Origin: a virus
Taxonomy: Duplodnaviria > Caudoviricetes
Strand: one strand, 5' to 3'
DNA length: 51,515 bases
IMG/VR virus record: IMGVR_UViG_3300023076_000001
Coordinates: 1 to 51,515 of that record
The translations under genes and the position numbers were made by a program. Position 1 is the first letter of the stretch. Each line of letters opens with the position of its first letter. Of this stretch, positions 9,907 to 44,951 are shown one piece after another. The notes beneath the pieces are model-generated. The model worked only from the letters and a program-made list of their open reading frames with translations. It ran no database searches and was not told where the DNA came from.

Positions 9907-9908
9907 CC

Positions 9909-10109: not shown

Positions 10110-10110
10110 G

Positions 10111-10440: not shown

Positions 10441-10452
10441 AGGACAATCGAC

Positions 10453-15728: not shown

Positions 15729-15752
15729 GTCTTGCCTCCCTAAGTGCGCCGT

Positions 15753-15941: not shown

Positions 15942-15952
15942 CGGGCGCTCTC

Positions 15953-16669
15953 CTAAAACGCTTCCGGCGCTAGGCGGCGGTCAATCTCGCGCCTAGCGTT
16001 CCACTTCAGATCCTCTTCCATTGATGGCTGAGCCAACATCCAGTTAAGGAATCCACCCTCTACCTCGGCCCATGGCTTGCCCCTGAACTTGCCGATTGGA
16101 CAAGTCGGCAAAAGGCGTGGCTCCTTGGTCCAGGCGATCATTTCCTTGCCGGTGGCTCCGGTTTCGAACAGGGCCTTGAGAATGTGGGCTGTGACATAAG
16201 CATCAGGCCCGGCGCGGTGCGGAGGCATGGCCAGATCATGGCGAAGTGAAAGCTTGCCCTGATCCTCTAGCCAGTAGCGCAGGACGCTATTGGAGTGGCC
16301 CTCCGCTTCAGGCCAAACCCGGTAAGCGGATTTGAGGGTGCAGATGGCGGGAAGAAACACCTCACCCAGAAAGCGCGCCTCGAAATCGAAGTTATGCGCA
16401 ACCAGAGCACCGCAATGGTCCGCCCCTTCATGCAAAGCAATCTGGTCGAAGGGTGGGAGGCCCGCGACCTCATCCATGGTGATGTGATGAACCGCGCGAA
16501 CGGTGGCGCTGATCGCCTTGACTCCGTAGAGCGCAGAGGATGGCTCCCCCACACTCCACGTTCCATCAGCGAGTTTTGTGAGGTCGCAGTATCCATACTC
16601 GACCACCTCCGCGCCCTCGCTTGGCTCCATTCCAGTAGTTTCGAAATCGATAACCCGAAGCGTAGTCAT
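15953..16669 (-). CDS. DEDDh 3'-5' exonuclease (ExoX-like)
   Basis: VIDFETTG, VAHNFDFE, HRAGPDAYVT; C-terminal PIGKFRGKPW..FLNW domain. Confidence 0.9.
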   Translation of the reverse strand: MTTLRVIDFETTGMEPSEGAEVVEYGYCDLTKLADGTWSVGEPSSALYGVKAISATVRAVHHITMDEVAGLPPFDQIALHEGADHCGALVAHNFDFEARFLGEVFLPAICTLKSAYRVWPEAEGHSNSVLRYWLEDQGKLSLRHDLAMPPHRAGPDAYVTAHILKALFETGATGKEMIAWTKEPRLLPTCPIGKFRGKPWAEVEGGFLNWMLAQPSMEEDLKWNARREIDRRLAPEAF

Positions 16670-16672
16670 GGC

Positions 16673-18436
16673 TTAACCTTCCGCCAAACGCTTGACGATC
16701 AGGGCGACCGTCTGCGTTAGGCTTTCCTGGCTGGCGGCGGGCATACGGCCAAAGGTCAGCGAGCCCTTGAGCTTCAGGAACGCCGAGTTGACGGCCTTGG
16801 AGCCTTCCGCACCAGCGGCTTGCGTGTCGGCCCAGAGCCGGAAGAACGATGGCGAGTCGGTGTGAGAAGGCGGCGACTTCAGGCCCACGGCGACGGCGTA
16901 CACGGCGCGCCGGAAAGCGGCCTTGTCGTCGTAATCCAGCTTTTTGAAGTCGTCGCCGTTGTAGATGCCGGGCAGCTTTTGCTGGATGGTCCCGAACTCC
17001 GTAGCCGTGCGCAGATCGGCCAAGATGGCGGCTTGCCACTCGGGGAGGTCTTCTTCGACCTCTTCGGCCAGCGGCTCGGGGTGGGCTTCGTACTCAGGAA
17101 GCTTGGCGAACTCGTCAAAGTTCACCCGCTGGAAGGGCTCGCCGTCGATATAGGATTGGGCGCAGTCGTCGGAGCCGATCTCCTCGCCGGCCAGGGTGTA
17201 TTCGACCCCGCGAGGAGCGGGGCCGGGGCATTGCTCCAGGGGATGCCATTCGCCGTCTTCATCATCGGCGAGGCCTGCCATTGCCTCGGCGACCGTTGCC
17301 GTTGAAGGCGCGGGCTTGTCGCCGGGAAACTCGTCGGCGATCTCGGCGGCAGCATCGTCCGCGTGGTCCACGACATCGCCCGGCTTCGTCGGGTGCATCG
17401 TGTAGCGCGCCAGTTGCGCCGCGCCCTTCTCACCGGCGTTCGAATGCTTCTCGCCGTCCTTGTAGGTTGGCACGCGGCCCGCGTCGCTCACGGGATCGCC
17501 AGCAAGCATATAGATCACGCCGGCCGGGGCTGGGCCGTTGATCTCGTCGCGAGCCTTGGGTGGGAAGACCTTGGCGGGCTCCGGTTCCTCAATAACGGCG
17601 TCTGGGATCTCCCCCGTTTCGGGATCGTGGGGCGTTTCGGCTTCCACCTGTTGTTCGTCAGATCCGAGCGCCTCCAAGGCAGCGGCGTTGAAGCCCTCGG
17701 TGGGCTTAACGGGTTGTTGTTGGAGTCGGGTGAGAACGCTGGTGCCGAGTTCATGCTGAACGGTCGTCAGGCCCTCGACTTCCTGGCCGCTCATTTCCTC
17801 GGCTGTCGGGCCGCCGTCTTCTTCGGGGAAGGCGCAGCGCAGGGCGTTGGCCTCGGCGCACTTGGCGAGTTGAGAATAGGTCTTGGTCTTCCACATGTCG
17901 TTAGGCGCCAGCGTGTCACGCTTGGCCTTGGCGTAGTATTCCTTCCACCGGACCTTCTCGCCGACAAAGGCGCACGCCACGCCCGCGACGAAACGATAGA
18001 CCGTGACTTGCGCCCACTCGGGATATGTCACATCGACGCCCCCCAGGTTTTCGGTCTTGTCGGGGCCGAAAGCGGTCTCGTCCTTGCCCGCGTAGTGGCC
18101 CGTTCGCATGGCCGTGATACGAACTTCAGCGATGGAGGGCCAGACCGAGTCCACCATCCGCGAGCGCTTCTTGTCATAGACAGGGACGACGTGAACGGGC
18201 TTCTTGAGAACGTCCAGCTTCCGCGCCTTGCAGTAGGCCAGAACGTTGATGATCGTCTCGGGCTCTTCGGCGGACGGGTAGAGAACATCAGTCAGGAACT
18301 TCCAAGTTCCACGGTCGATGCCGAACCGCTCCTCAATGAGCGGGTGATACGGAAGGCGCGGCCCCGACAGCCGCAGCTCGTTGCGTGGCTGCTGAGTAGT
18401 GGTGGCGATCTGAGTGCTTTCGGCTTGTTCGGTCAT
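16673..18436 (-). CDS. bet: Single-strand annealing recombinase (Bet/RecT family) with long C-terminal extension
   Basis: YCKARKLD..KKPVHVVP, AMRTGHYAG, QLAKCAEANALRCAFPE; PHDPETGEI linker; downstream of the RecE-like gene. Confidence 0.88.
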   Translation of the reverse strand: MTEQAESTQIATTTQQPRNELRLSGPRLPYHPLIEERFGIDRGTWKFLTDVLYPSAEEPETIINVLAYCKARKLDVLKKPVHVVPVYDKKRSRMVDSVWPSIAEVRITAMRTGHYAGKDETAFGPDKTENLGGVDVTYPEWAQVTVYRFVAGVACAFVGEKVRWKEYYAKAKRDTLAPNDMWKTKTYSQLAKCAEANALRCAFPEEDGGPTAEEMSGQEVEGLTTVQHELGTSVLTRLQQQPVKPTEGFNAAALEALGSDEQQVEAETPHDPETGEIPDAVIEEPEPAKVFPPKARDEINGPAPAGVIYMLAGDPVSDAGRVPTYKDGEKHSNAGEKGAAQLARYTMHPTKPGDVVDHADDAAAEIADEFPGDKPAPSTATVAEAMAGLADDEDGEWHPLEQCPGPAPRGVEYTLAGEEIGSDDCAQSYIDGEPFQRVNFDEFAKLPEYEAHPEPLAEEVEEDLPEWQAAILADLRTATEFGTIQQKLPGIYNGDDFKKLDYDDKAAFRRAVYAVAVGLKSPPSHTDSPSFFRLWADTQAAGAEGSKAVNSAFLKLKGSLTFGRMPAASQESLTQTVALIVKRLAEG

Positions 18437-19386
18437 TGGCTGAGTTCCGCTTCCATAATTTTGATGCGCTCTTCGATCTTCTTGCGCTTCCAGGGGAGGA
18501 TTGTGATGTGCTGGGCGTCGCGTTGCTCCCCGCCGATGCCGGGCCACACACCCGTTTTCAGGCATCGGTCGAAGGTATCCAAGGCGACGCGATTTTGACG
18601 CTGTCCTAGTTCAAGGTCTTCGCCGATCAGCGAGTGAACGCGGGCTTCGTGGGGCTCTTCGGTTTGACTGAAGACTAGCGTGAACGAGTTCATGGGCTCG
18701 CCGATCACGGCAAGAACGCCGTCTCCGACAAGGGCGCCCTGTTGGTTCATTCCGAGATCGCCGACCGCTTTGGCCAGGCCGTCGTCATCAATCGCCGCCG
18801 TGCTCTTGAAGTCGGATATATCAAGGCTGCTGGTCGGGATTACGTCGGGGCGGACCTTGAGCCAAATCCCGGTTTTCTCGTCCTGCCAGAACAAGGACGT
18901 TTCCACGAACCCGTTCAGGATGCCTTCTTTGACCATGGGGTGAGCCGAAAGCTCACGCGCCATGCCGCGAATGGAGGTCAGATCATCCGAGCTGATAATG
19001 ATCTTCCCGGCGTTTTCCTCTGCCCATTTTTTGCAGTACTTGGCCCCGCCATGCCAAGGCTTGGGCTCGCCCGTCTTGTCGTCGGGATATGTCGCGGGTT
19101 GGACGACGAACTTAGCGCGGAAGTCGTGCATTTCGAGAACGGCGGCGTGGGATGCGGACCCGAAAAGCATTGCCTTGGTCGGGTCCTTGACGACCCGGTT
19201 CGGATTTCCTGCCCAGAACCGGAAGAAGTGCTTTGCGCCCTTGTTGAAGATGGTCTTTAGGGTCGTGGAAGACGCGGACGGACCCACGCAGATGTCATGC
19301 CGGTGATAGTCCTCCAACGGCATTCCGACGATCCAGCAAGGCCGATCAATCGGTTTCCCGTCCCACTTTTCGGGCTTGAGTAGCAT
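18433..19386 (-). CDS. RecE/exonuclease VIII-like PD-(D/E)XK nuclease
   Basis: SSTTLK, FGSASH, ETSLFW..TGIWLKVRPD, DFKST. Confidence 0.88.
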   Translation of the reverse strand: MLLKPEKWDGKPIDRPCWIVGMPLEDYHRHDICVGPSASSTTLKTIFNKGAKHFFRFWAGNPNRVVKDPTKAMLFGSASHAAVLEMHDFRAKFVVQPATYPDDKTGEPKPWHGGAKYCKKWAEENAGKIIISSDDLTSIRGMARELSAHPMVKEGILNGFVETSLFWQDEKTGIWLKVRPDVIPTSSLDISDFKSTAAIDDDGLAKAVGDLGMNQQGALVGDGVLAVIGEPMNSFTLVFSQTEEPHEARVHSLIGEDLELGQRQNRVALDTFDRCLKTGVWPGIGGEQRDAQHITILPWKRKKIEERIKIMEAELSQ

Positions 19387-19448
19387 TTCAGTTCCTTGGC
19401 TGTGTTCGCTGGCGAGGGCGAAGCGGAGACCGTGAGGCCTCCGCATAA

Positions 19449-19482
19449 CGAGACTGTAGACCTGTGGTGTAGGGCCTACAAG
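19449..19482 (-). promoter_or_regulatory. Leftward promoter for the recombination operon
   Basis: On the minus strand TTGTAG-N17-TACAGT; contains the C-N4-CTGTAG motif. Confidence 0.45.
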
Positions 19483-19688
19483 CCGTCTTTCGCAGCGGGA
19501 GGGCGCCCGCCGCCGCGCGAGGACGATCCGCCCTTTGCGCCAGCAGACGCGGCGAGAGCGGCGTCGCGCGAGAACGAGCGCTTTTCCTTCGGGACAGCAG
19601 CGCCGCCACGGGCCGCAATCTCGCGGCGCAGTTCGTCACTCATTGCTGCGAACCCCCTACGGGCCTTGGGCTTGGTTTCATCGGTCAT
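19476..19688 (-). CDS. KGG-repeat general stress protein homolog
   Basis: RGFAAMS.E.RREIAARGG..VP.EKRSFS.D..LAA.AG.KGG. Confidence 0.85.
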   Translation of the reverse strand: MTDETKPKARRGFAAMSDELRREIAARGGAAVPKEKRSFSRDAALAASAGAKGGSSSRGGGRPPAAKDGL

Positions 19689-19763
19689 GGGTGTTCCTCG
19701 TTTGCTCGCGTAACGGCACGCGGTGCTGGCTGTCAGCGGACCAACAGCCAGGGCGGCGGGTCG

Positions 19764-20072
19764 TTAGATGAACTGATGCCAAGCAGCGCCGAAGCTCCAG
19801 AACAGCAGGTTAGTTAAAACCCCACCGATCATCACGGAGCCCATGTAAGCGAGGATGCTTTGATCCTCGTCGCGTTCGGTCGATGTCTTGAGGCGGCGAA
19901 CGCAGTAGCTCGTCACGTACATCACGCCAACGGCCTGCAAATAGGTCAGGGCCGGAACATGGAAGATCGGAACCACGAACCATCGCCAGAGGTCGGAGAA
20001 GACAAGGCCGCTAAGAAGGGTTGTGGGAATGCCCACAATCATCAGGGCGATAAAGGCCAGAAACTTGGTCAT
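19764..20072 (-). CDS. Membrane protein
   Basis: Three hydrophobic segments; LWRWFVVP motif. Confidence 0.7.
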   Translation of the reverse strand: MTKFLAFIALMIVGIPTTLLSGLVFSDLWRWFVVPIFHVPALTYLQAVGVMYVTSYCVRRLKTSTERDEDQSILAYMGSVMIGGVLTNLLFWSFGAAWHQFI

Positions 20073-20341
20073 CAGAAGGCTTCCTCAATCTCAGCTTCGG
20101 CCGCGTCGTCGGCCTTGGGTTTGCGTCGGCGCTCGCTCATGGCCTCGCGGTTGGCGATCTTGGCGGCGGCTTTGGCGAGTTCTTCGTCCCAATGGGTCTG
20201 AGCCCTAGCGCGGGCCTCGTCCTCGGTCGGGGCGCGAAAGACGACAGGAAGCCAGCCGTCCTTACCGAGGTGGATATAGGCGACGGCTTGGGCGTTTGCG
20301 GGCGCCTCTCGCTCATCGGCAACATAGCTTACGATTCGCAT
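20072..20341 (-). CDS. Hypothetical protein ending EEAF
   Basis: TGATG-coupled to the downstream gene. Confidence 0.7.
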   Translation of the reverse strand: MRIVSYVADEREAPANAQAVAYIHLGKDGWLPVVFRAPTEDEARARAQTHWDEELAKAAAKIANREAMSERRRKPKADDAAEAEIEEAF

Positions 20342-20478
20342 GTCAGGCGCTCTCTCGATTGCTCTTCGGCCTGGACGCGAACAAGATCGCTATGCCGAGG
20401 GCCGCAACGCGGGCAACCGAAGATGCCTCGCAGGTTCTTACGGATGCGGTAGCGACCGCACTTCACACAGCTTGCCAT
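20329..20478 (-). CDS. Unannotated 49-aa zinc-ribbon protein
   Basis: MASCVKCGRYRIRKNLRGIFGCPRCG...; AAGGA RBS. Confidence 0.6.
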   Translation of the reverse strand: MASCVKCGRYRIRKNLRGIFGCPRCGPRHSDLVRVQAEEQSRERLTCES

Positions 20479-20499
20479 GTGGGAAAATCCTTAGGGGAT

Positions 20500-20657
20500 T
20501 AGAGGGAGGGAGCATTCGCCCTTGCAGATCCACTGCCCCCTCCCTTTCACCCGCTTCGCAGAGTTTACTCTGTGAAGGTTCGGCGACGAATGTCGCCGAA
20601 CGAACAACCGCTCCTCTGGATCGAGGGCAAGAGGTCACGGTTGAAACTGAATGACCC
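20500..20657. ncRNA. Multi-hairpin structured intergenic element
   Basis: Consecutive stems GAGGGAGGG/CCCCTCCCT, CTTCGCAGAG/CTCTGTGAAG, GTTCGGCGAC/GTCGCCGAAC and GGTCA/TGACC. Confidence 0.4.
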
Positions 20658-21098
20658 TTAGGCCTCGGGGGGCGATGGCAGCGCGGACGGCGCGCCGAAC
20701 TCCTTAAGGCGTTGAAGGTCAGGATTGTCTGCGACGAGCTTTGCGGCAAGCTCTTCTTTCTTGCGACGCGTCTCGGCCGACTTAATCGCAGCGATGGCGT
20801 TGTTCTCGGCGGCGATGATGGCCTCATACGGCGCCACATCCACCGGGCCGACGATCCAGCCCACTTGAACCGGCGAGTCCAGATCGATTTCAACATCAAC
20901 CTCCTCGACGCGAACCACGGTCATGTCATGCCGCGTTCCGGTGGGGATGACCACGTACTGGCCGACCTTGATAGCCGGGTCCATGGTCTTGAAGTGGGTG
21001 AACGGGCGCTTGCCCTTACCCTCGGCGTCCACTTCGTAACTGATGGCCACGGCGCGCACGTCGCTGCGAACGAGAAAGAGGGCGGTGGAATAGTTCAT
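20658..21098 (-). CDS. Hypothetical phage protein
   Basis: AAGGA RBS; KVGQYVVIPT beta-barrel followed by a helical tail. Confidence 0.75.
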   Translation of the reverse strand: MNYSTALFLVRSDVRAVAISYEVDAEGKGKRPFTHFKTMDPAIKVGQYVVIPTGTRHDMTVVRVEEVDVEIDLDSPVQVGWIVGPVDVAPYEAIIAAENNAIAAIKSAETRRKKEELAAKLVADNPDLQRLKEFGAPSALPSPPEA

Positions 21099-21135
21099 GG
21101 TCCTTGGTCCTTGACGGTGGGTTGAAAGGGAAGCT

Positions 21136-21204
21136 TTACGCCGGAATGTTCAACAGCACGGCGGCGAACATGGCGAGGCCGAGGAGGGCGAGATAGCGCG
21201 GCAT
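21136..21204 (-). CDS. 22-aa hydrophobic peptide
   Basis: MPRYLALLGLAMFAAVLLNIPA; starts 1 nt after the upstream stop. Confidence 0.45.
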   Translation of the reverse strand: MPRYLALLGLAMFAAVLLNIPA

Positions 21205-21205
21205 A

Positions 21206-21379
21206 TCAACGACCCCAGATGAGGAAACCCGCCGCTGCAAGTAGAGCGATGGAGAACAATATCGGGACCACTTTGAAAGAAAGTGCGCTGATGCCGTTGT
21301 TGGTGTCCAAAATGCTGGCCATGATTAATTGCCAAGCGGCAACGGCTGCGAGGAGAATAGCGATTTGAAGATCGGTCAT
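21206..21379 (-). CDS. Small 2-TM membrane protein
   Basis: GGAG RBS; first gene of a leftward operon. Confidence 0.65.
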   Translation of the reverse strand: MTDLQIAILLAAVAAWQLIMASILDTNNGISALSFKVVPILFSIALLAAAGFLIWGR

Positions 21380-21568
21380 GAGGTCTCCGTTTGGCTGGCT
21401 CACCCGGCGAGGCAAGCAACACTGTAATGCGCTGGGTCCGCGCTACGGTCAAGCGGAAATCGTCAGCGTAGTTGCGGCGATTTGGTTTTCGGTGGAAAGT
21501 GGGGCCGCGCTCAATCGCCGAGCGTTTCGCCAACGACATTCCGTCACACATCGAAAATCGGAGAGAAC

Positions 21569-22312
21569 ATGGCCCGAGAGCCGCAATCCGCGAAGGCCGC
21601 GAAGGCGCGCGCACAAGCCCTTTCGCGCGGGGGTACTGGTGGGGATGGTCGCGCCCTGACCGTCGTGGACAACATGACGCCGGAAGAAAAGCGCAAGGCG
21701 GCCGAGGCTGCGGAAGAGGCGCAACTTCTGTCGTTCCTGTCGCGCATCCGTGCAAAGCAAAAGATCGCCGACGAGATCAAGGCCAAGTACGACGAGGCCA
21801 AGACCGAAGTTCGGACGGTCTTCAATCTGGCCGACAGCGCCGGGTTTAAACGCGAGGAGCTGAACGAGATCTTGACTGACAGCAAGGTCACGGGCCAACG
21901 CAAGAACCTCGCTGAGAAGGAAGCCCGCCGCGTCCGCTTCCGCAAGTACGTCGGCCTTCCGGTCGGGCTCAGCGACGAACAGCAGGAACTCGATGGCCGC
22001 CTTGCGGACACCGCTAAGGACGAACTGGATCATGAGGCGGACGGCTATCGCGCGGGCGTCGCTGGCGATGAGCCTAAGCCGCCCAAGGAGTGCCCCTCGA
22101 ACTTCCACAGCGCTTGGATGAAGGGCTATCACAACGGCCAGGCGCGCAATGCGTGGGCGCTGTCGGAGGCCAAGGGCAAGTCCCCGATGCCCAAGCCCGC
22201 CGCCGTCCCCAAGGCCGAGCCCGCCAAGGCTGAGTTCACCGAGGCGACGCCTGACGAACTGGCGCAACAAGCGGGCCGCAAGCCCGATGAAGCGCCGGCC
22301 GAAGCCGTCTAG
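21569..22312 (+). CDS. GapR(DUF2312)-like DNA-binding protein fused to an RMF-like domain
   Basis: QLLSFLSRI..VRTVFNLADSAGF..L.EI matches the GapR pattern; GYRAGVAG..ECP...SAWMKGY matches the RMF pattern. Confidence 0.65.
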   Translation: MAREPQSAKAAKARAQALSRGGTGGDGRALTVVDNMTPEEKRKAAEAAEEAQLLSFLSRIRAKQKIADEIKAKYDEAKTEVRTVFNLADSAGFKREELNEILTDSKVTGQRKNLAEKEARRVRFRKYVGLPVGLSDEQQELDGRLADTAKDELDHEADGYRAGVAGDEPKPPKECPSNFHSAWMKGYHNGQARNAWALSEAKGKSPMPKPAAVPKAEPAKAEFTEATPDELAQQAGRKPDEAPAEAV

Positions 22313-22875
22313 TGGAAAAGATCGCCTTCTTTGACCTTGCGCCAGGGCGGGCGGGTTGGTGTGTCGGTGTGGGTGATTCCACGCCGACCACTGGCGTCAT
22401 TGAGTTTGACGACCACGGCGACGACCTTGGAGGCTTGGGCCTTCAGTTCCTAGAACACCTGAACCTCTTGCACGCTCGCTTCGGGTTCACGGTCGCGGGC
22501 AACGAAAAGCCCCTCCTACTCGTCAACGTCAGGGGCAAGAACGGCAATCGACGCACCGACACCCTAGACGACTTGCGCCGCATCTACGGCCTCGGGTTCA
22601 CGCTGGCCACATGGTGCGCGCAGCGGCAAATCCCGTTCTGGGAGGAAACCGTCCAGGCGGTGAAGAAGGAATCAACCCGCAACCACACCGCCGAAAAGAA
22701 AGAAGTAGCGGACCAAATCGAAAAGATCGGGATCGATATTGGCCGTGGCCCTGGACGTCTTGACCGAGCTGACGCCGCTTCCGGCTGGCTCATCGGCGTT
22801 CGCACATGGAACCCGCATCTATCGGCCGCATGGGACCGCAAGCTATTCTCGGCGGTCGGGGCTTTACGTTCCTAG
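22312..22875 (+). CDS. RuvC-like Holliday junction resolvase
   Basis: IAFFDLA..AGWC, NEKP, VKK..T..AEKKEV, DRADA. Confidence 0.7.
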   Translation: MEKIAFFDLAPGRAGWCVGVGDSTPTTGVIEFDDHGDDLGGLGLQFLEHLNLLHARFGFTVAGNEKPLLLVNVRGKNGNRRTDTLDDLRRIYGLGFTLATWCAQRQIPFWEETVQAVKKESTRNHTAEKKEVADQIEKIGIDIGRGPGRLDRADAASGWLIGVRTWNPHLSAAWDRKLFSAVGALRS

Positions 22876-22937
22876 CGGCACGGTTTAAACACCACTGTAG
22901 GGCGTCGCCGCGCCTGATAGCCGAGAGGATTCAGAAC

Positions 22938-23333
22938 ATGGCCATACGAATTGGGCCGCAGCCACTCCCGCCCATGCGCGGCCCGCAACTCATCGCCGAA
23001 ACGGTTCTAGGCGCCATCGTGGATGGCCACGAACTAGACGCGGTCGACGTTAAGAACATCGTGGATTTCCGCCACGAACACGGCGGCTCACGGCTTAACG
23101 AGGCCGTACTGATCCTAGCCCGAGCGCTGGCCAAATCCATGAGCGACCTTGAGGCCGAGAAGGCCGGGGCGCGCATCCTGGCCAACGAACTGAAAGCCGC
23201 CAAGCGCCGACCTCTGGCCCTTGTCCCGAGCATCCTTGACCAGATCCGCGAGGCCAAGCGCGCGGCGAACCAACGCGGCGAGGTGTTCGCGATTGAGGAC
23301 ATTCGGCCGATTTTGGAAAGGGCGCTGTCGTGA
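22938..23333 (+). CDS. Hypothetical protein
   Basis: GAGAGGA RBS; GTGA coupling. Confidence 0.65.
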   Translation: MAIRIGPQPLPPMRGPQLIAETVLGAIVDGHELDAVDVKNIVDFRHEHGGSRLNEAVLILARALAKSMSDLEAEKAGARILANELKAAKRRPLALVPSILDQIREAKRAANQRGEVFAIEDIRPILERALS

Positions 23334-23488
23334 GCGTTCAGCTCGACCTATTCGACAGGCCGCTACCGAAGTGCGGCGATTGTCGCAACCTCGGGCCGGC
23401 GATTGAAAGCGGCGTTCGATATTGCCTGGGGTGCTTAACCTGGCGGTGGGCGGATGATCGGATCGATTGCCGGTCCTACAAGCCATGA
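23330..23488 (+). CDS. Unannotated 52-aa Cys-rich protein with N-terminal QLDLF clamp-binding motif
   Basis: MSVQLDLFDRPLPKCGDC...YCLGC...DC; 4-nt overlaps with both neighbours. Confidence 0.75.
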   Translation: MSVQLDLFDRPLPKCGDCRNLGPAIESGVRYCLGCLTWRWADDRIDCRSYKP

Positions 23489-24030
23489 CCCCACCCATTG
23501 GCCAGTTCGGCCTGGTACTGGCTGACCCTCCATGGCGCTTCATCACGCGCGACGGGGTTTCAGCGGTCCCAACGCAGGCCGATGACCCATACCCGACCAT
23601 GAGCCTGGACGAGCTGAAGGCCATGGACATGTCGTTCACGGGCGCGGCCGATTGCGTCTGCGTCATGTGGGCGACGGCGCCGTTGCTGCCCGAGGCCATC
23701 GACATGCTTGGGGCATGGGGGTTTGCCTACAAGACGGCGGGTTCGTGGGCCAAGCAATCCAGCACGGGGAGGAAGTGGGCCTTTGGGACCGGGTATATCT
23801 TCCGGTCGGCGGCCGAGTTCTACGTCGTCGGGATGCGTGGATCTCCGCGCCTCAAGTCGAAGTCGGTTCGCAACCTGATCGTCGCACCGATTCGGGAGCA
23901 CTCGCGCAAGCCCGACGACATGCACGTCATGTGTGAGAAGCTTTTCGATGGCCCGTATCTGGAGCTTTTCGGACGCCAGCAGCGGCCAGGCTGGACGGTC
24001 GTGGGAAACGAGGCTCACAAGTTCGGATGA
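23485..24030 (+). CDS. MT-A70 family adenine methyltransferase
   Basis: LADPPW, YPTM, WGFAYKT, REHSRKP, YLELFGR. Confidence 0.92.
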   Translation: MTPPIGQFGLVLADPPWRFITRDGVSAVPTQADDPYPTMSLDELKAMDMSFTGAADCVCVMWATAPLLPEAIDMLGAWGFAYKTAGSWAKQSSTGRKWAFGTGYIFRSAAEFYVVGMRGSPRLKSKSVRNLIVAPIREHSRKPDDMHVMCEKLFDGPYLELFGRQQRPGWTVVGNEAHKFG

Positions 24031-24216
24031 GATCGGCGGCCTGGGAGGATCGCCGCCCTCCCAGGCCTGGGCCGCAGCGTCAACGAATGGTGCCAGCCAA
24101 GGCGAGGGACTAAGCCCCCGACGAGAACACCACCGGACTGAAGCGGCCTTGACCATTGAGATAGCGGATTGCCCGGCGTCTGTCCATTGACCGGATTATG
24201 ACGGAAGGCTTATGAA

Positions 24217-24282
24217 GGGCGGGCGGCGCTGCTACCAACAGCCGCCGCCCATAACCACCGGCTGCTAGGAGAGCCTGACGTG
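24217..24282 (+). promoter_or_regulatory. Hairpin-TAACC-RBS hairpin leader (copy 3)
   Basis: GGGCGGCGCTG..CAGCCGCCGCCC-ATAACC then GGCT..AGGAG.AGCC before GTG 24280 (18-aa ORF coupled to the methylase). Confidence 0.5.
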
Positions 24283-24332
24283 ATCGACCGGATAAATACC
24301 GGTGCGCCCTCTTTGTTGCAAGGGCGCTCTGA

Positions 24333-25007
24333 ATGACCCGAACCGAAGTGATATGCGACGCCACGCTGTACCTCGGCGACTGTCGCGACATCCTGCCGAC
24401 GCTTGAGCGCGTCGATGCGGTTGTGACCGATCCTCCGTATGGGATTGCCGCAGCTAAAAAAGGCGCGCATTCGTCAATTCGTGACAATGATGCTTGGGCC
24501 CCCGCTGATTGGGATGATGGTCGCCCCCCAGAAAGCCTGTTTGCGACCCTGTTACGGTCCCGCGAAGTCGCGATCTGGGGTGGTAATTATTTCGCCGACC
24601 TTCTTCCGGCGTCTTCCGCTTGGCTGGCCTGGGTCAAGCCCGAAGCTGACACGGGCTTCTCCCTCGCAGACATGGAATTGTGCTGGACGAACCTGGGATT
24701 TGCGGCGCGCACGAAGCGACTACCGCGCCGAGACGGTAACGAACACCCCACGCAGAAGCCCGTTTCGGTGATGGCTTGGACGCTGAGTTTTGTAAAATCG
24801 GCCACCGTGCTTGACCCGTTCATGGGCTCAGGAACCACCGGCGTTGCGTGCGTCAATCTGGGCCGCGCATTCATCGGCATTGAGCGCGACCCGACATACT
24901 TCGACATCGCCTGTCGTCGCATCGAGGAAGCCTACAAGCAGCCACGCCTGTTCGCCGAGCCCGTGTCCAAACCCGTTCAAACGTCATTCCTGGACGAGTT
25001 CAGATGA
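24333..25007 (+). CDS. Beta-class N4-C/N6-A DNA methyltransferase
   Basis: GDC..L, VTDPPYG, HPTQKP, VLDPFMGSGTT, FIGIE. Confidence 0.93.
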   Translation: MTRTEVICDATLYLGDCRDILPTLERVDAVVTDPPYGIAAAKKGAHSSIRDNDAWAPADWDDGRPPESLFATLLRSREVAIWGGNYFADLLPASSAWLAWVKPEADTGFSLADMELCWTNLGFAARTKRLPRRDGNEHPTQKPVSVMAWTLSFVKSATVLDPFMGSGTTGVACVNLGRAFIGIERDPTYFDIACRRIEEAYKQPRLFAEPVSKPVQTSFLDEFR

Positions 25008-25825
25008 GCCTCGCCGCTATCGTTGAAGCCCTGTTCGAGGCTGGAGCTACGCGCGAAATGATCGTGGCGGCGGTGCGCGCCCATGAGGTGAACGGCGTTC
25101 AATCTTCCCCGAAATCGTCCGCTGCTGAGCGGCAAAAGCGTTATCGCGAGCGTAACAAAGCGTCACGCGAGCGTAACGAAACCGTAACGCCGGAAAATGA
25201 CCAAGGCGTAACGGAAAACGTCACAACCGTAACGAAAAGCGTAACGGAACGTAACGCCCCTCGCGCACGCGTAAGAGATATAACTTCTAACTCAGAACTA
25301 ACTGGAGAAGATAATCCCTCACTACGTTCGGATAACAGTTGCGGCGGTGACATGTTCGGTGACGGACCTGGGACGGCGTTAGCGGTCATCCCGTTGCGCC
25401 CTGTCGCCAAGCAAACCGACGCGGTGATTGCGTTCGATGGCTACAACGCCGTGGCGGCTGAGCTGGGGCTTCCTGTGGCCAGATCCTTGACCGAACCGAG
25501 GCGGAAGGCGCTGAAGCGAAGGCTTGCCGAAGTGGGTCTAGACGGCTGGACGGAGGCTCTTAACCGGCTGCGAACAAGCCCGTTCTGCCAAGGCAAAACC
25601 GGAAACGATTTCATCGCAACGCTGGATTTCATGCTGCAACCCAAGTCCTTCACCAAATTGGTCGAAGGCGCTTACGAACGGAGACCCAATGGGAACGGAA
25701 CTTACCAAGACGACGGAAGCGGACCAACGCGGATGGCTGGTGGCGCGTACCCCAGATCAGGTGGACGCGGCCCTGTTGACATCGGTGGCATCATCATTCG
25801 GCGCCGTGCTGAGCGTGGTGAGTGA
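25004..25825 (+). CDS. Replication initiator protein
   Basis: AERQKRYRER motif, internal iterons, C-terminal LT..RRKAL..RL..W..SPF..G...TLDF...F.KL.EG.Y domain. Confidence 0.75.
   Translation: MSLAAIVEALFEAGATREMIVAAVRAHEVNGVQSSPKSSAAERQKRYRERNKASRERNETVTPENDQGVTENVTTVTKSVTERNAPRARVRDITSNSELTGEDNPSLRSDNSCGGDMFGDGPGTALAVIPLRPVAKQTDAVIAFDGYNAVAAELGLPVARSLTEPRRKALKRRLAEVGLDGWTEALNRLRTSPFCQGKTGNDFIATLDFMLQPKSFTKLVEGAYERRPNGNGTYQDDGSGPTRMAGGAYPRSGGRGPVDIGGIIIRRRAERGE
25151..25320 (+). repeat. Putative replication origin: iterons plus AT-rich tract
   Basis: 7 CGTAAC and 2 CGTCAC within 25151-25255, followed by an AT-richer TAACT-containing tract. Confidence 0.75.
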
Positions 25826-26423
25826 GAACCGCTTTCCCGAGGATGGCCCGGCATACCGCGTGGCTGTCACATGCGGGGTTCAGGTCGCATCGGTCGAACA
25901 GGCCATGGCGGCGGCTGAGCGCTTCCAAGGTGCGATGTTGCCCGCTACGCAAAGCCAAGTGGAAGATTGGTTCTACGCCTTGCGCTTGGCGACTGCTGGC
26001 GCAGCAAAGGCCGAAACTGACGAAGAGGCGCGACTAGCTCTGTACGTCAACGCTATGGCTCGATACCCCGCTGATGTTGCAAAGGCGGCGCTCGGGGCGT
26101 TCATGACGCGCACCAAGGGCTGCACGGCGTGGTTTCCGACCTTGGCCGAACTTGTCGCCGAAGCCGATAAGCTGGTCGCACCGCGTCAGGTCATCATCGC
26201 TGGATTGCTGGCCTGGAAGCCGAAGACGCCGGATCAGGAGCGCCAAGAAGACGCCCGAGAACTGTTATTCCAAGCTGTCGAAAAGGAGCGCGAGGCCTTC
26301 CAGTTCAAGCGCTCGGACGCGCCCAAATACGCAGCCATGATGGGCGAGGCCAAGGCGCTGAGAGCCAAGGCTGCCGACATGCGCCGTGGTGGACCCGCGC
26401 CCGAAACCCCCGAAGCCTTTTGA
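25689..26423 (+). CDS. Putative helicase loader/inhibitor-like protein (paralog 1)
   Basis: Follows the initiator; Y...MARYPAD...A...WFPTLAEL motif; ends PEAF. Confidence 0.55.
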   Translation: MGTELTKTTEADQRGWLVARTPDQVDAALLTSVASSFGAVLSVVSENRFPEDGPAYRVAVTCGVQVASVEQAMAAAERFQGAMLPATQSQVEDWFYALRLATAGAAKAETDEEARLALYVNAMARYPADVAKAALGAFMTRTKGCTAWFPTLAELVAEADKLVAPRQVIIAGLLAWKPKTPDQERQEDARELLFQAVEKEREAFQFKRSDAPKYAAMMGEAKALRAKAADMRRGGPAPETPEAF

Positions 26424-26495
26424 TTGCCAACCGCCCCGGATAGCACTACTGTAGCCAAACCGGGTTCGCCGACCCTAGCCGAGAGGAAATCGAAG

Positions 26496-26564
26496 ATGAC
26501 CAATGATGCTTGCAAGGTTGAGGCTTTCAAGGCCTCGGCCGTCTCTGTGAAGCGGGTGGCGTGA
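26496..26564 (+). CDS. 22-aa leader peptide
   Basis: GAGAGGA RBS; TGATG coupling to the NTase-like gene. Confidence 0.45.
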   Translation: MTNDACKVEAFKASAVSVKRVA

Positions 26565-26989
26565 TGAGTGTCTGGACGCAAGCCGAGGCCATCGAACTGG
26601 CCATCGCCATCGAGGCCGTTTGCCCGGCCTATGGATGCCATGTCGCCCTGACTGGCGGCCTCCTCTACAAGCCTGGCCTGCGGAAAGACGCCGATCTCCT
26701 GTTCTATCGCATCCGCGATTGGGATGAGATCGACGTGAAGGGCCTCTTCGGCGCTTTGGCGAGCCTTGGCATCGTGCAGGGCACGGACCATGGCTGGTGC
26801 AAGAAGGCGACCTTCCACGGCAAGCCGATCGACTTCTTCTTCCCTGACGACGACGGCTCTTATCCCGACCATCTGTCGGAAATCGATCTGTTGGACATGG
26901 ATGCGGTCGAGGCCTTCCACGACCTGAAGGCGGAAGCCCGCAAGGATCGCGCCGACATCGCGTCGCTCCAGTCGGAGGCGCAGTCGTGA
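26564..26989 (+). CDS. Minimal nucleotidyltransferase (Pol-beta superfamily)-like protein
   Basis: VALTGGLLY...RKDADLLF and a distal IDFF. Confidence 0.55.
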   Translation: MSVWTQAEAIELAIAIEAVCPAYGCHVALTGGLLYKPGLRKDADLLFYRIRDWDEIDVKGLFGALASLGIVQGTDHGWCKKATFHGKPIDFFFPDDDGSYPDHLSEIDLLDMDAVEAFHDLKAEARKDRADIASLQSEAQS

Positions 26990-27456
26990 CCTCCCCCACC
27001 GTAGACACCAAAGCGCCAAAGGTTCTGGCTGAGCGTGAAGAGCTTGCGCGGATTATCGATCCGAAGGCTTGGCGCGTCCGGCAGGAGCGTCTCGACCGCG
27101 CGGCCCACTGGCTGGAAAACCCCGACAAGTTCCGTCAGGCGGAAGCCGACATGTTCCATCGCGGAAACCTTTCGGACGCGGATCTCGCCGTTAAAGAAAG
27201 CCGCGCCAAGGCCGATGAATGGCTCTCCCGCACTGACGCCCGCAACACCGAGCTAGTCGCCCAGCGCGATGGGCTGGTGAATGCGGCTATCGAGGCGTTC
27301 GCCGCCGATGTTGTCGCGGAAGCCGTGCGGTACGCCCGCTGCTACCAGCCCGGAACGGACGGCTTCAACACCTTCCATCTGCTGGCCGACCGGATCGCGG
27401 CCCTTGCCAAAGACCGCATCATCCACCCATTCCGAGCGGCTGGCGGTGAGGCATGA
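26986..27456 (+). CDS. Hypothetical protein
   Basis: GGAGG RBS; REELARIIDP motif. Confidence 0.7.
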   Translation: MTSPTVDTKAPKVLAEREELARIIDPKAWRVRQERLDRAAHWLENPDKFRQAEADMFHRGNLSDADLAVKESRAKADEWLSRTDARNTELVAQRDGLVNAAIEAFAADVVAEAVRYARCYQPGTDGFNTFHLLADRIAALAKDRIIHPFRAAGGEA

Positions 27457-27611
27457 CGGCCAAGTGGTTTCGAAGGTTTGGCCAATGCAACACGCTGGGG
27501 TGCTCAAAGCCCGGCGCTGGCGAGTTGATGGACGAGCGCAACGGCGTGCTTGGGACATTCTGCGAGCGATGCGCCAAGATACGCATTCAGCGTGAGAGCC
27601 GAGCACAATGA
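27453..27611 (+). CDS. Unannotated 52-aa Zn-finger protein
   Basis: MTAKWFRRFGQCNTLGCSKP...FCERCA; ATGA overlaps at both ends. Confidence 0.7.
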   Translation: MTAKWFRRFGQCNTLGCSKPGAGELMDERNGVLGTFCERCAKIRIQRESRAQ

Positions 27612-28231
27612 CCGAACTCCCCCTGATCGGTGGCCAGATCAACGCCAAGCACCCCCGCGACCTGTGTAGCGCGGCTCTTTGGCGATACCTGACCGAGTCG
27701 CCTGCTGCATCCGGCGCCGCAAACTCTGTGGCTTGGAACCCAAAGCTTCGGGAAGAGGTCAGGGACGTGCGCGAGCGGTTCCAGGCCATGACCGGCCCGA
27801 TTGGTGCGGAGAGGCTGCTAGAGCGGCTTGCTGCAATGGCTCCAGGGTACGGACTGCCCGATATGGACCCAGACACCCTAACCGGCCTGCTGCGGCCCTA
27901 CGTGGCCGAGTTGATGCACCTTCCCGTCGCCTGCTTTGAGGATGCCGTGGAGCGTTGGAACGCTGGCGAAGGGATGAAGAAGTCACCCGAGAGCGCGCGG
28001 TTCATCTTTCCGCGTCCAGACCAGTTGCACGCGCTGGCCAAGCCATCGCTAACCGAAATCGCAACCGCAGCCTGGCGCTTTCGTAAAGCTGTCGAGGCCA
28101 TCGAGAAGTTGCCGCCTCCCAAGCGCGAGCGGCCAACGAAAGCGGATCTGATCGCGCAGGGAATCCTAGACAGCGAGGGACGGGCGATCCTGACCAAGAC
28201 CGCGCCGGCCGATATTCCAGAGGCATTCTAA
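27608..28231 (+). CDS. Putative helicase loader-like protein (paralog 2)
   Basis: Y..EL..LP....DA..RW...FPRPDQL motif resembles 25689; ends PEAF. Confidence 0.5.
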   Translation: MTELPLIGGQINAKHPRDLCSAALWRYLTESPAASGAANSVAWNPKLREEVRDVRERFQAMTGPIGAERLLERLAAMAPGYGLPDMDPDTLTGLLRPYVAELMHLPVACFEDAVERWNAGEGMKKSPESARFIFPRPDQLHALAKPSLTEIATAAWRFRKAVEAIEKLPPPKRERPTKADLIAQGILDSEGRAILTKTAPADIPEAF

Positions 28232-34144: not shown

Positions 34145-34179
34145 TTTGGTTCTCTCTGGCTGTAGGGGCGGCGACCCCG

Positions 34180-34407: not shown

Positions 34408-34447
34408 GTCCGTTGACAACAGTATCGCTTACCGACATTCATGGCCC

Positions 34448-35692: not shown

Positions 35693-35884
35693 AAAGCCAG
35701 AGAACTCCGCATCGCCCTTGCCGAAATCGGCATATCCCAGGCTGAGCTAGCTCGCATCTTGGGCCGATCCGCCAACACCGTAACAGGATGGGTCAACTCC
35801 GACTCCATGCCGCCAGAGGTCCGGTTGTTTTGCCGTGTCGCCAAAGACCACGGCCTCGCCTATGCGAAGGCTGCCGTCCAATGA
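35690..35884 (+). CDS. XRE/Cro-like HTH regulator
   Basis: LAEIGISQAELARILGRSANTVTGW. Confidence 0.88.
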   Translation: MKARELRIALAEIGISQAELARILGRSANTVTGWVNSDSMPPEVRLFCRVAKDHGLAYAKAAVQ

Positions 35885-36447
35885 AACGCGCTTATGTTTA
35901 CGTGATCAGCGCTGGTGAAATGCACCAGAAAATCGGCATCACAACCAACATCAACACCCGCGTCGCCACGCTTCAAACCGCGCACTATCATCAGCTCACG
36001 CTGCTGCATTTTGTTGAAAATGAGTGCGCTGCATGGATTGAGGCCAGATGCCATGAATTGTTGAAGCATCGGCGCTTGCGGGGAGAGTGGTTCTTTATGA
36101 CCCGCGAGGAAGCAGTTTCGGTTGTGCAGAAAGTGACACGACAAGCCGTTCCTGGTGTGAACGACCCCGGATATACCCCAAACCTTTTCCGTGAAGGCCA
36201 AAGGATCGTTTGCATCGCGGAGCATATCAATGCCGACGATGACGAGCCTGAGGTGACTATCGGAGAGGTTTATACCGTCTCGTTCGTTCATGAAAATTGG
36301 TACTTGAGCCTGGAGGAGCTTCCGACCGACGAGGTTTGTTTTTGCCCGTCACGGTTTCGGCCATTTAACGAAGACACAAGTGAAGATTTGATGAGGCTGC
36401 TTCAAGTTCCAGCTTTGGGCTCCAATAAGATTCCCGAGGCGATTTAG
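35881..36447 (+). CDS. GIY-YIG (T5orf172/MUG113-like) nuclease-domain protein
   Basis: YVYVI..KIGIT...RVATLQT..IE..CH..LRGEWF; extra C-terminal F..GQRIVC domain. Confidence 0.85.
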   Translation: MKRAYVYVISAGEMHQKIGITTNINTRVATLQTAHYHQLTLLHFVENECAAWIEARCHELLKHRRLRGEWFFMTREEAVSVVQKVTRQAVPGVNDPGYTPNLFREGQRIVCIAEHINADDDEPEVTIGEVYTVSFVHENWYLSLEELPTDEVCFCPSRFRPFNEDTSEDLMRLLQVPALGSNKIPEAI

Positions 36448-37379: not shown

Positions 37380-37793
37380 ATGACGTTAAAGCCGAAGAAA
37401 CCACCTGTAGCTAGAGGCCAGAATGGGGGCGTCCGAAAGGGCGCTGGCAGGCCTCGGGGCGCGGTCTCTCAAATCAAATTGGACCTGAAGCAAAAGGCCC
37501 AGCAATACGCCGACATCGCCCTGGCAACCCTGGCTGAGATCGCCAAGGACAAGAAGGCGCCGCAAGCCGCTCGCGTGTCGGCGTCAAACTCCCTTCTCGA
37601 CCGTGGATACGGAAAGGCGATCCAGTTCGTTGACGCCCATGTCGAGACGGTGGGCAATGTCGGCGTATATCGTGTTGACCGATCCAAGGCCGAGGAGCTG
37701 CAAACCGCAGAACTTGGGGCCACGTTCGCGGCGGCCGACTCCGATCCTGAAGACTATGACACGTCAGAGGACGAAATCGACGAGGCGGTCTGA
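37380..37793 (+). CDS. terS: Terminase small subunit
   Basis: GGVRKGAGRPRG, ARVSASNSLLDRGYGK; coupled to terL. Confidence 0.85.
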   Translation: MTLKPKKPPVARGQNGGVRKGAGRPRGAVSQIKLDLKQKAQQYADIALATLAEIAKDKKAPQAARVSASNSLLDRGYGKAIQFVDAHVETVGNVGVYRVDRSKAEELQTAELGATFAAADSDPEDYDTSEDEIDEAV

Positions 37794-44865: not shown

Positions 44866-44951
44866 CCGCTTGTTTGTCGTTGTGCTGCGTTTAGGTATTG
44901 TCCCCCGGTAAGCGGCCCTTCGCCGCGTCACCGCTACAAGGAATTTCACCA

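Follow-up and report, generated by a model that had tools for sequence, protein, structure and literature searches.

A shared C-terminal EA[FI] peptide on unrelated DNA-handling proteins of a phage, probably a recognition tag and possibly a turnover signal

The window, the whole stretch of 51,515 nucleotides that was analysed, holds a complete phage of 51.5 kb. Its gene set of 76 proteins was obtained with our own codon-usage heuristic rather than a dedicated gene finder, and the choice of start codon has no bearing on the C-termini in this set. A sequence-only reading of the same DNA had pointed to four proteins ending in EAF-stop, a GIY-YIG protein ending in IPEAI and three EAV ends; all of these termini are present, the four EAF ends with the codons given there (Table 1). 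The peptide forms the C-terminus of no fewer than five unrelated proteins, all of them non-structural and DNA-handling: four are encoded in the early arms, and the gene for the fifth, the GIY-YIG nuclease, lies shortly before the terminase genes. To call it phage-wide, as that reading did, was overstated: the secure set comprises 5 of the 76 proteins, none of them structural.

Table 1. Proteins of the window that end in EAF, EAI or EAV
Protein	Position	Strand	Length (aa)	C-terminus	Last codons	Tag codons
DnaQ/ExoX-like 3'-5' exonuclease	15953..16669	-	238	...RRLAPEAF	GAA GCG TTT TAG	15956-15970
89-aa protein	20072..20341	-	89	...EIEEAF	GAA GCC TTC TGA	20075-20089
P3, replication-module protein	25689..26423	+	244	...ETPEAF	GAA GCC TTT TGA	26406-26420
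P4	27608..28231	+	207	...TAPADIPEAF	GAG GCA TTC TAA	28214-28228
GIY-YIG nuclease	35788..36447	+	219	...NKIPEAI		36430-36444
GapR-like / RMF-like protein	21482..22312	+	276	...PDEAPAEAV		
Small terminase candidate (TerS)	37380..37793	+	137	...SEDEIDEAV		
164-aa protein, late region	44898..45392	+	164	...QHVEAV		

In terms of family assignment, the exonuclease matches Pfam RNase_T, phrog_192 and, below the cut-off, NCBIfam exodeoxyribonuclease X, and the GIY-YIG domain is supported by tblastn matches to GIY-YIG nuclease records over residues 31-119 and by PHROGs homing-endonuclease families. The 89-aa protein consists of a β-hairpin, a long helix, a basic patch (RRRKPK) and an acidic linker that leads into IEEAF. 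P3, which ends ...RRGGPAPETPEAF, and P4 were called loader-like on weak hints. Their position adjoins an O/DnaD-like initiator; comparison with Pfam, PHROG and NCBIfam (including G39P / lambda P, PF11417 and PF06992) gave no match for either. Foldseek returned weak lambda P rows for P3 (E 0.5-0.9), VIA-align paired no more than a helical hairpin in the loader comparison, the Atlas leads for P4, to G39P_N and lambda P, reached just 0.86, and hhalign of P3 against P4 gave a probability of 14%.

The repeated terminus is unlikely to have arisen by chance. Among the 1053 six-frame stop-to-stop frames of at least 30 codons, eight end in EA[FILVMYW], and all eight are long open reading frames (at least 105 codons) backed by a gene call or a homology search. 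The 76 proteins contain EAF at 11 sites, of which four are C-terminal, as against 0.055 C-terminal occurrences expected from its per-site frequency; PEAF occurs three times, always at the C-terminus. When random internal positions were taken as mock termini, any tripeptide was common to at least four proteins in 39 of 200,000 resamplings and any tetrapeptide common to at least three in 3 of 50,000 (probabilities of 2e-4 and 6e-5, respectively).

Conservation of the terminus differs between families. IEEAF is kept in all eight relatives of the 89-aa protein (51-88% identity) while the linker differs in sequence and length, and IPEAF is kept in three of the four relatives of P4 (39-45% identity), the remaining one ending ...GEVV. 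In these two families the last five residues are, by comparison of the orthologs, under purifying selection behind a variable linker, which bears out the earlier view that conservation acts on the peptide and not on a DNA repeat. Retention of the tag by homologs does not extend to the other two EAF proteins. None of the 119 best-listed exonuclease homologs (63-76% identity) ends in EAF, their termini being ...DRRRAA, ...DRRRA or similar, and among the 150 representatives listed from 323 matches to P3, TPEAF is found only on the closest (73% identity), the others ending at about ...RRGE(IEP), so that the tag extends the usual family end. Because nearly all listed homologs end without it, the tag on the exonuclease and P3 is a lineage-specific add-on to widespread families. 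The search gave no ortholog spanning the C-terminus of the GIY-YIG nuclease, and EAF C-termini are absent from all 1275 open reading frames of 65 related loci, the motif thus being lineage-restricted. AlphaFold2 models of the 89-aa protein and P3 predict the tag to be an appended, disordered tail: residues 74-89 of the former are coil with a pLDDT of about 53, and in the P3 model, with a pLDDT of 93.6, the tail (residues 233-244) is coil at about 53-55.

A different peptide occupies the same position in a sister lineage represented by the loci L002 and L003. A [DE][VI]V end is found on seven of the 23 called genes of L002, in six cases in the form GD[VI]V or TDVV with differing codons, and on 5 of the 19 called genes of L003. 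Among the carriers in this lineage are a phrog_192 exonuclease, a protein of 96 aa with the same build as the 89-aa protein, a GapR-like homolog and a P4 homolog (the distant P4 homologs end VGDIV and VGDVV), and also two DNA methyltransferases and an ATPase. Reciprocal controls were negative, with [DE][VI]V on none of 788 window frames and EA[FIV] on none of 287 frames of locus L098. Taken together, the tag is real and under selection as a peptide; it is an appended, disordered tail specific to its lineage, and it is swapped for another on the same protein set in the sister lineage. Such an exchange between lineages on the same proteins amounts to a natural swap experiment, which is rare for bacterial short linear motifs.

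Other relatives carry tails resembling the ssrA tag. Ends of the form A[ND][DNEG]x4-11AA, a pattern that agrees with the ssrA tag given for Caulobacter in PMC1233412, were found on 30 of 1754 unique proteins in related loci, compared with an internal rate of 0.042%, and on none of the window proteins. Plain AA ends occur on 2 of 75 window proteins versus 12-22 proteins per genome in sister proviruses. On the ExoVIII-like proteins of relatives the tail is an extension of roughly ten residues, and in the sister provirus G001 all four full ssrA-like tails lie before the terminase gene. A CII-like activator, a RusA-like resolvase, a DnaB-like helicase and ExoVIII are among the tailed proteins, a set too mixed for a single replisome hub but one that makes sense as early proteins. 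Some of the AA signal does not reflect a degron, since plain AA ends are also found on late proteins of the sister proviruses (7 of 33 in G001) and are commoner before coupled starts (38% vs 23%). The tails in the sister proviruses suggest that regulated proteolysis is much more widespread among phages than the one or two tagged regulators reported to date would imply.

These observations lead us to a reading in which the peptide probably works as an address label that a single shared partner reads. That the label most likely directs turnover is the best reading that we can offer, and we hold it tentatively, at somewhat less than an even chance. The motif [I/T/A]-[P/E]-E-A-[F/I] at the free C-terminus would serve as a short recognition tag ending a flexible linker, and a single common reader would recognise it on the five unrelated proteins. 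This role would fall to an adaptor, or to the part of an ATP-dependent host protease that recognises substrates, by which the tagged proteins would be cleared together in a concerted turnover. Turnover through EA[FI] would then correspond in function to the ssrA-like tails on the early proteins of sister phages; we infer the functional equivalence of the three tag types from the sharing of protein sets. What the sister lineages show favours a shared reader and, judged from the sequence comparisons, shifts the balance towards turnover: in one of them GD[VI]V marks the same set of proteins, and in others early proteins end in ssrA-like tails.

The likeness to the ssrA/ClpXP degrons, with their adaptor SspB, lies in a short peptide at the extreme C-terminus, behind an unstructured stretch, that is portable across unrelated proteins, and precedent is provided by the genome-encoded ssrA-like tags described in actinobacteriophages with integration-dependent immunity, on repressors and on integrases (PMC5559632). 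Those tags are on one or two regulators, whereas here at least five proteins per genome carry the peptide. Counting against turnover, EAF is not ssrA-like: EAF, EAI and GD[VI]V have no Ala-Ala end and no AAND part, the residue at -3 is acidic, and EAF ends in Phe. In a random C-terminal pentapeptide screen in E. coli, the degrons with strong enrichment have Ala at the last two positions, with Leu and Val depleted at the last, and pentapeptides like those found here are not among the potent autonomous degrons it describes (PMC10862746). Because of this dissimilarity an adaptor must be postulated, in line with the screen authors' stated view that other substrates probably need adaptors (PMC10862746); none was found for this tag.

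A close rival to turnover, one that we consider somewhat less probable, is that the tail is a docking peptide that plugs proteins into one replication or recombination hub, of phage or host, with no degradation involved. It would work like the C-terminal tip of SSB, or like the Phe-ended acidic tails of T7 gp2.5 and gp4 on T7 DNA polymerase. The helicase-primase gp4 of T7 carries a tail like that of gp2.5. In gp2.5, the T7 SSB, the acidic, flexible tail ends in Phe and is read by one partner, contacting a basic patch of T7 DNA polymerase as described in PMC12339929. The phage studied here is likewise one in which different replication proteins have a common tail with an aromatic end (four EAF and a fifth EAI, three of them modestly acidic). 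However, its carriers are more numerous and more varied, they have a defined five-residue motif rather than mainly charge, and the Pfam and PHROGs scans show no DNA polymerase among the window proteins. The resemblance to the acidic-Pro-Phe tail of SSB that the sequence-only reading had proposed is retained in part: like the SSB tip (...D-D-D-I/L-P-F), the hub peptide of the SSB interactome, the tail is a C-terminal Pro/acid/Phe-COOH end after a disordered linker in a DNA-metabolism setting, but the match is loose, with Glu-Ala between Pro and Phe, an acidic run that is slight or missing in three of five tails, non-OB-fold proteins as carriers and no ...DDDIPF, whereas phage SSBs of related loci end ...DDDIPF, ...DDEIPF or ...DDEVPF. 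The docking reading gains from the acidic or Pro-rich character of the tails, from the fact that all secure carriers act on DNA, from the absence of any Pfam SSB match in this genome, as the earlier reading had supposed, and from a five-residue specificity and lineage switching that would suit a co-evolving pocket. SSB-like acidic tails occur in related phages on RecE-like exonucleases, phrog_11517 proteins and a primase-helicase, and the last seven residues of host SSB are also read by RecT recombinases in the account given in bioRxiv 2020.04.14.041095. The docking reading is weakened by the presence of the sister-lineage tag on the methyltransferases and ATPase, and of AA-lineage tails on a CII-like regulator and a resolvase, both too mixed for one replisome hub; an ssrA-like tail would also be a poor docking device. 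Bet/RecT, a candidate hub, has no counterpart in the relative G005, and of the untagged proteins common to both lineages, which are just a RuvC-like protein and another of no assigned function, none stands out as a hub. A quite improbable alternative dispenses with a common reader: the acidic tail would fold as a DNA mimic onto the DNA-binding surface of its own protein, as for SSB-type tails. The carriers do bind or cut DNA and the tails are acidic and flexible, but several have just one or two acidic residues, and neither the same last five residues on unrelated folds nor the whole-set switch of peptide in the sister lineage is explained.

The least probable of the readings, and very unlikely in our judgement, is that the peptide is a by-product of gene packing plus chance, with GAG/GAA-GCN acting as a Shine-Dalgarno sequence or spacer for a coupled next gene. 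The idea bears most directly on the EAV ends. Of the 31 genes that have a start on the same strand within -10..+25 nt, 10 carry Glu at -3 versus 5 of the 45 others, and 7 have EA-x ends versus 4 of the 45; a start codon lies 0-4 nt past all three EAV genes, coupled starts also follow the EAA and EAT genes, and many AA ends in sister loci have the form GGAG/GAGG-GCNGCN-TGATG. Since a coupled start follows and Glu(-3) is enriched in coupled genes, the EAV ends of TerS and the 164-aa protein may be Shine-Dalgarno by-products, and both are doubtful as members of the tag set. The TerS tail is like EIEEAF, but GAGG in its E-A codons is followed 7 nt later by the overlapping start of TerL (TGATG), and the search gave no ortholog spanning this tail; for the 164-aa protein, which matches phrog_26087 alone (function not assigned), the next start is 4 nt past the stop. 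The GapR-like protein is spared this reading because its homologs bear the local tag in two other lineages (...REGGDVV in L002 and L003; ...ANDDLASTAVQGAA, ...PANDEGDDARQEAA and ...PDAANDASEQEAAA in the AA lineages) and is, on this comparison, a probable, weaker member, although its stop overlaps the next start (TAGTG). The EA[VI] variants of the sequence-only reading are thus weakened, EAV being confounded by coding-sequence Shine-Dalgarno elements with the GapR-like protein as the exception, while IPEAI stands. A coupled start with GGAG/GAGG 5-10 nt before it is seen for TerS (37793) and the 89-aa gene (20072), whose stop overlaps the next start (TGATG) with GAGGA within the E-E codons; at 22312 and 45392 the start is coupled with no GAGG, and at 26423, 28231, 36447 and 15953 a coupled start with embedded Shine-Dalgarno is absent. 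Three of the four PEA[FI] genes have no coupled downstream gene, with no called same-strand gene starting near the P4 stop and none called as coupled downstream of the GIY-YIG gene, and the downstream neighbour of the fourth has its own AGGAG past the stop. Four of the eight Glu codons are GAA and so form no GAGG, a Shine-Dalgarno role leaves unexplained the Ile(-5) and Phe(-1) kept by all eight relatives in one family and three of four in the other, the resampling probabilities speak against chance, and the GD[VI]V tags vary in codons and downstream context. The by-product reading is therefore largely refuted for the PEAF, IEEAF and PEAI core. For annotation, EA-x, G-x and AA ends before coupled starts may be Shine-Dalgarno by-products and should be separated from true motifs.

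Returning to a shared tag that may direct turnover, a broader and doubtful extension is that the temperate phages of the group studied here, which is associated with Caulobacterales, place modular address tags on an early-protein set and exchange them en bloc between lineages, one reader setting lifetime or assembly. The series would run from ssrA-like AND...AA to [VI]GD[VI]V and then to [IAT][PE]EA[FI], and the reader of the non-ssrA tags would be a new adaptor, perhaps supplied by the phage itself, which turns a host AAA+ machine towards the tagged proteins. If one reader does act through a five-residue tail, one peptide would explain how many unrelated phage enzymes are timed or organised; the tag could be a portable handle for tuning protein behaviour in alphaproteobacteria, and its peptide a bait for retrieving the reader. 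The β-clamp-binding motif has the consensus QL[SD]LF / QLxLxL; the tails have no Gln and carry Glu or Ala at the Leu/Met positions, and on sequence this candidate was rejected. SspB-type adaptors carry a short C-terminal ClpX-binding peptide past a long flexible linker that tethers them to one reader. The likeness to them is one of architecture, the peptide being on an adaptor there and on many clients here.

Five unrelated, non-structural, DNA-handling proteins of the window end in a common motif, [ITA]-[PE]-E-A-[FI], which is a peptide-level, appended, disordered and lineage-specific C-terminal feature, and in a sister lineage another motif substitutes for it on the same protein set. The shared tag described in the sequence-only reading is real, wider than that reading saw, and belongs to a family of C-terminal tags that are interchangeable within this group of phages. 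Short C-terminal recognition peptides are a known kind of signal, and the tag of the window is a new form of these.

Direct terminal repeats bound the whole IMG/VR record (51,515 bases, G+C about 61%). Pfam and PHROGs scans reveal a siphovirus-type late region, with terminase, portal, DUF6260 capsid protein, tail terminator and tape measure, and an early region composed of two divergent arms. Because the exonuclease homologs bear the source names Brevundimonas, Caulobacter and Phenylobacterium, the host is probably a member of the Caulobacterales. Megablast of 15 kb of the window gave no match among GenBank phages, and no SSB gene was found in the window; an RNA-gene scan returned no tRNA or tmRNA genes there and just one tRNA-Ala in 15 related stretches. 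The Bet/RecT ORF probably starts at Met44; its Bet domain (residues 92–258) is followed by a long acidic region containing two similar stretches (GPAP.GV.Y.LAG...), and its extra C-terminal domain of ~110 residues has no family match.

Coordinates and termini of the early-region features, the tag carriers and their counterparts in related loci
Feature	Coordinates	Strand	Terminus or content
Leftward early arm	15.1–21.4 kb	−	DnaQ/ExoX-like exonuclease, 630-codon Bet/RecT ORF, ExoVIII-like nuclease, small genes
Rightward early arm	21.5–28.2 kb	+	GapR/RMF-like protein, RuvC-like resolvase, two DNA methyltransferases, O/DnaD-like initiator, several proteins without assigned function
Exonuclease	15953–16669	−	APEAF
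89-aa protein	20072–20341	−	IEEAF, end ...RRRKPKADDAAEAEIEEAF
P3, 244 aa, tentatively loader-like	25689–26423	+	TPEAF
P4, 207 aa, tentatively loader-like	27608–28231	+	IPEAF
GIY-YIG nuclease	35788–36447	+	IPEAI
GapR-like protein	21482–22312		AEAV
TerS	37380–37793		EAV
164-aa protein	44898–45392		EAV
Early protein	20658–21098	−	...PSPPEA
Early protein	26986–27456	+	...AAGGEA
Bet/RecT ORF	16673–18565	−	630 codons
O/DnaD-like ORF	25004–25825	+
Region of lower G+C	34000–38000		G+C 0.57–0.59
Junctions with Shine-Dalgarno in the upstream gene's end (examples)	14182, 29327, 30600, 31944, 33188, 37793
ssrA-like-tailed early proteins, L083 (provirus G001)	8389–9348, 11209–11517, 15486–16127, 19385–20158		several per genome; also L096, L099, L100, L101, L013, L066, others
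RecE-like nucleases, L034, L038, L039, L040, L047, L054, L058	~9200–11400		...E-E-[IM]-[IV]-[LIF]
Sister lineage: phrog_192 DnaQ-like exonuclease			[DE][VI]V
Sister lineage: phrog_1499 ATPase, 420 aa			[DE][VI]V
Sister lineage: 96-aa protein			[DE][VI]V, end ...RKPKGSEDVGDIV
Sister lineage: GapR-like homolog			[DE][VI]V
Sister lineage: methyltransferase			[DE][VI]V
Sister lineage: P4 homolog			[DE][VI]V
Sister lineage: ParB-methyltransferase			[DE][VI]V

Genes were called by a self-trained, heuristic codon-usage score, and the C-termini hinge solely on which ORFs are real; database homologs exist for all four EAF ORFs. The four EAF termini, with their differing codons, lie exactly where the sequence-only reading placed them, as do the IPEAI end of the GIY-YIG protein and the three EAV ends. 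Among stop-to-stop frames of at least 30 codons in all six frames, 8 of 1053 end in EA plus a hydrophobic residue, and all eight are long, real ORFs. The 76 proteins of the set contain EAF 11 times, with 4 of these at the C-terminus, and PEAF three times, always at the C-terminus. When mock termini were resampled, any tripeptide was common to at least four proteins in 39 of 200,000 trials and any tetrapeptide to at least three in 3 of 50,000, so the shared EAF exceeds resampled chance. Two further early proteins end in E-A with no final hydrophobic residue; the stop of the rightward one overlaps an ATG (ATGA).

In two families, orthologs keep the tag behind diverging residues. All eight relatives of the 89-aa protein (51–88% identity) end in IEEAF, behind a linker that varies in sequence and length, and three of the four P4 relatives (39–45% identity) end in IPEAF, the other in ...GEVV. 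For P3 and the exonuclease the best-listed homologs differ. TPEAF is present only in the closest P3 homolog (73% identity) among the best 150 of 323 representatives, in which the usual end is ...RRGE(IEP), so that GPAPETPEAF is an extension. EAF is absent from all 119 exonuclease homologs (63–76% identity, from the best 120 of 1714 hits), which end in ...DRRRAA, ...DRRRA and similar, and across 65 loci that surround exonuclease or P4 homologs, none of 1275 called ORFs ends in EAF. The tag is thus kept by two narrow families, whereas two widespread ones acquired it as an addition in this lineage alone. Neither P3 and P4, each searched singly, nor the 89-aa family alignment found anything in viral contigs, and P4 and P3 alignments found nothing in genome contigs. 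In metagenome contigs the sole match to the 89-aa alignment was a 1082-bp contig whose C-terminal half is identical and which thus adds no independent codon evidence. In tblastn against phages, TerS and the GIY-YIG protein gave no ortholog spanning the tails.

In AF2 models of the 89-aa protein and P3 the tags sit at the end of a coil. The 89-aa protein is modeled as a hairpin and a helix (residues 40–73) followed by an unstructured tail, and P3 as a confident fold (pLDDT 93.6) that ends in 12 unstructured residues. P3 and P4 have no family hits in Pfam, PHROGs or NCBIfam, and the P3 model has no convincing fold match in Foldseek PDB or VIA-align wide: Foldseek returned weak lambda P rows, VIA-align a helical-hairpin match alone, and the Atlas leads, at 0.86, to G39P_N and lambda P. 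When the profiles of P3 and P4 were compared the probability was 14%, so that paralogy of the two is no more than possible. The O/DnaD-like and P3 ORFs overlap by 137 nt in different frames, and P3 homologs have about 28–35 more N-terminal residues than the window's ORF permits, which suggests a problem with the start, the overlap or a frameshift where the two ORFs meet.

Distant P4 homologs (35% identity) led to two viral contigs of 20–26 kb, L002/L098 (G005) and L003/L104, which have an early-region layout in common with the window. [DE][VI]V ends 7 of the 23 genes called in L002 and 5 of the 19 called in L003, mostly as [VI]GD[VI]V, with different codons (GTC, GTA, GTT, GTG) and different downstream contexts. 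The tagged 96-aa protein and the 89-aa protein are similarly built at their ends. The two motifs are reciprocally absent in an all-frame control: [DE][VI]V ends none of 788 window frames and EA[FIV] none of 287 L098 frames. A different shared tail on the same kinds of protein is as predicted for a motif with one reading partner. Since its homolog is tagged here, the window's GapR-like protein returns to the tag set as a probable member.

A third kind of tail is found in the proviruses closest by exonuclease, where Ala-Ala ends 20 of 66 (G001), 22 of 76 (G003), 16 of 78 (G002) and 12 of 67 (G004) proteins. Over all fetched loci AA ends 233 of 1754 unique proteins (13%, versus an internal rate of 1.9%), and A-[ND]-[DNEG]-x(4-11)-AA ends 30 of 1754 (versus 0.042%). 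The A-N-D...AA tails resemble the Caulobacter ssrA tag, printed as AANDNFAEEFAVAA (PMC1233412). On ExoVIII-like proteins ANDN...AA is a ~10-residue extension past the end held in common with the window's protein, and five loci have a GapR-like homolog with a full tail. In G001 all four full tails precede the terminase gene, and plain AA ends occur in 13 of 33 genes before it versus 7 of 33 from it onward; of the proteins scanned there, ExoVIII bears the full tail, whereas AA ends are found on a CII-like activator, a RusA-like resolvase and a DnaB-like helicase. Plain AA ends call for caution, as the signal is partly tied to coupling (38% of coupled versus 23% of uncoupled genes, in 13 AA-rich loci selected for this comparison). 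Late proteins of related proviruses also bear AA ends.

Could such tails arise from the DNA? Translational coupling is frequent in the window (ATGA, GTGA, TGATG), and the Shine-Dalgarno of the coupled gene (GGAGG, GAGG and, five times, GGAAGG) then lies within the last 3–5 codons of the upstream gene, which biases C-termini toward E, G, K, R and A. Glu occupies position −3 in 10 of the 31 genes whose stop is close to a start on the same strand, versus 5 of the remaining 45. Coupling applies to each of the three EAV genes, as well as to the EAA and EAT genes; the EAV variants of the sequence-only reading are therefore confounded by the next start. The PEA[FI] genes behave otherwise: three of four have no coupled downstream gene, and downstream of the fourth lies a gene that has an AGGAG of its own 3′ of the stop. 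The Glu codon is GAA in four of the eight tag-type termini. The Shine-Dalgarno effect is thus part of the pattern but not of the core tag, and a pure Shine-Dalgarno or chance origin of the shared tails is highly improbable; neither predicts a sister lineage with a different shared tail on the same kinds of protein.

The motif shared by five proteins, together with its replacement on the same set, makes one common reader very likely. For its effect we favor, tentatively and at somewhat less than even chances, concerted turnover, in which the reader would clear the tagged early proteins together. This reading is suggested by the ssrA-like tails that related phages have on early proteins orthologous or syntenic to those of the window, by the tagged sets, which share early status rather than one machine (nucleases, methyltransferases, a regulator, a resolvase, a helicase and loader-like proteins across lineages), and by the actinophage precedent for phage-encoded ssrA-like tags (PMC5559632). 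EAF and GD[VI]V are themselves not ssrA-like, and potent autonomous C-terminal degrons of E. coli are almost all ssrA-like (PMC10862746), so that an adaptor must be assumed for turnover. The tail might instead be a docking peptide that binds the tagged proteins to one hub, a somewhat less likely role but a close rival of turnover. The tail chemistry agrees with docking, as do, by analogy, the T7 and SSB tails (PMC12339929; bioRxiv 2020.04.14.041095) and the SSB-like tails that related phages carry on other recombination proteins. Acidic tails with a hydrophobic end are common in the recombination modules of other exonuclease loci (L034, L038, L039, L040, L047, L054, L058): besides the RecE-like nucleases, phrog_11517 proteins end in ...DDDEVPL, ...DDEAPM or ...EEVEEAPF, and a primase-helicase ending in ...DDDSPF adjoins SSBs ending in ...DDDIPF. 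Against docking, no hub candidate emerged, and Bet/RecT became a weaker one once G005 proved to have no Bet homolog.

Three other roles were rejected. The tag has the wrong residues for a beta-clamp motif; a PDZ-type reader has no cytoplasmic candidate, and no Pfam PDZ is found in the window; a capsid-targeting signal has no support, the carriers being replication and nuclease proteins. A full-text literature search with the tag pentapeptides returned acronyms and unrelated matches only, and the literature on phage ssrA-like tags in one full-text library held the actinophage precedent and nothing on multi-protein tagging, EAF or GDVV.

The G+C content falls near the HTH regulator, the GIY-YIG nuclease and a 254-aa ORF upstream of the small terminase. 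The GIY-YIG gene was overlooked by the codon-usage gene call, a hint of recent acquisition.
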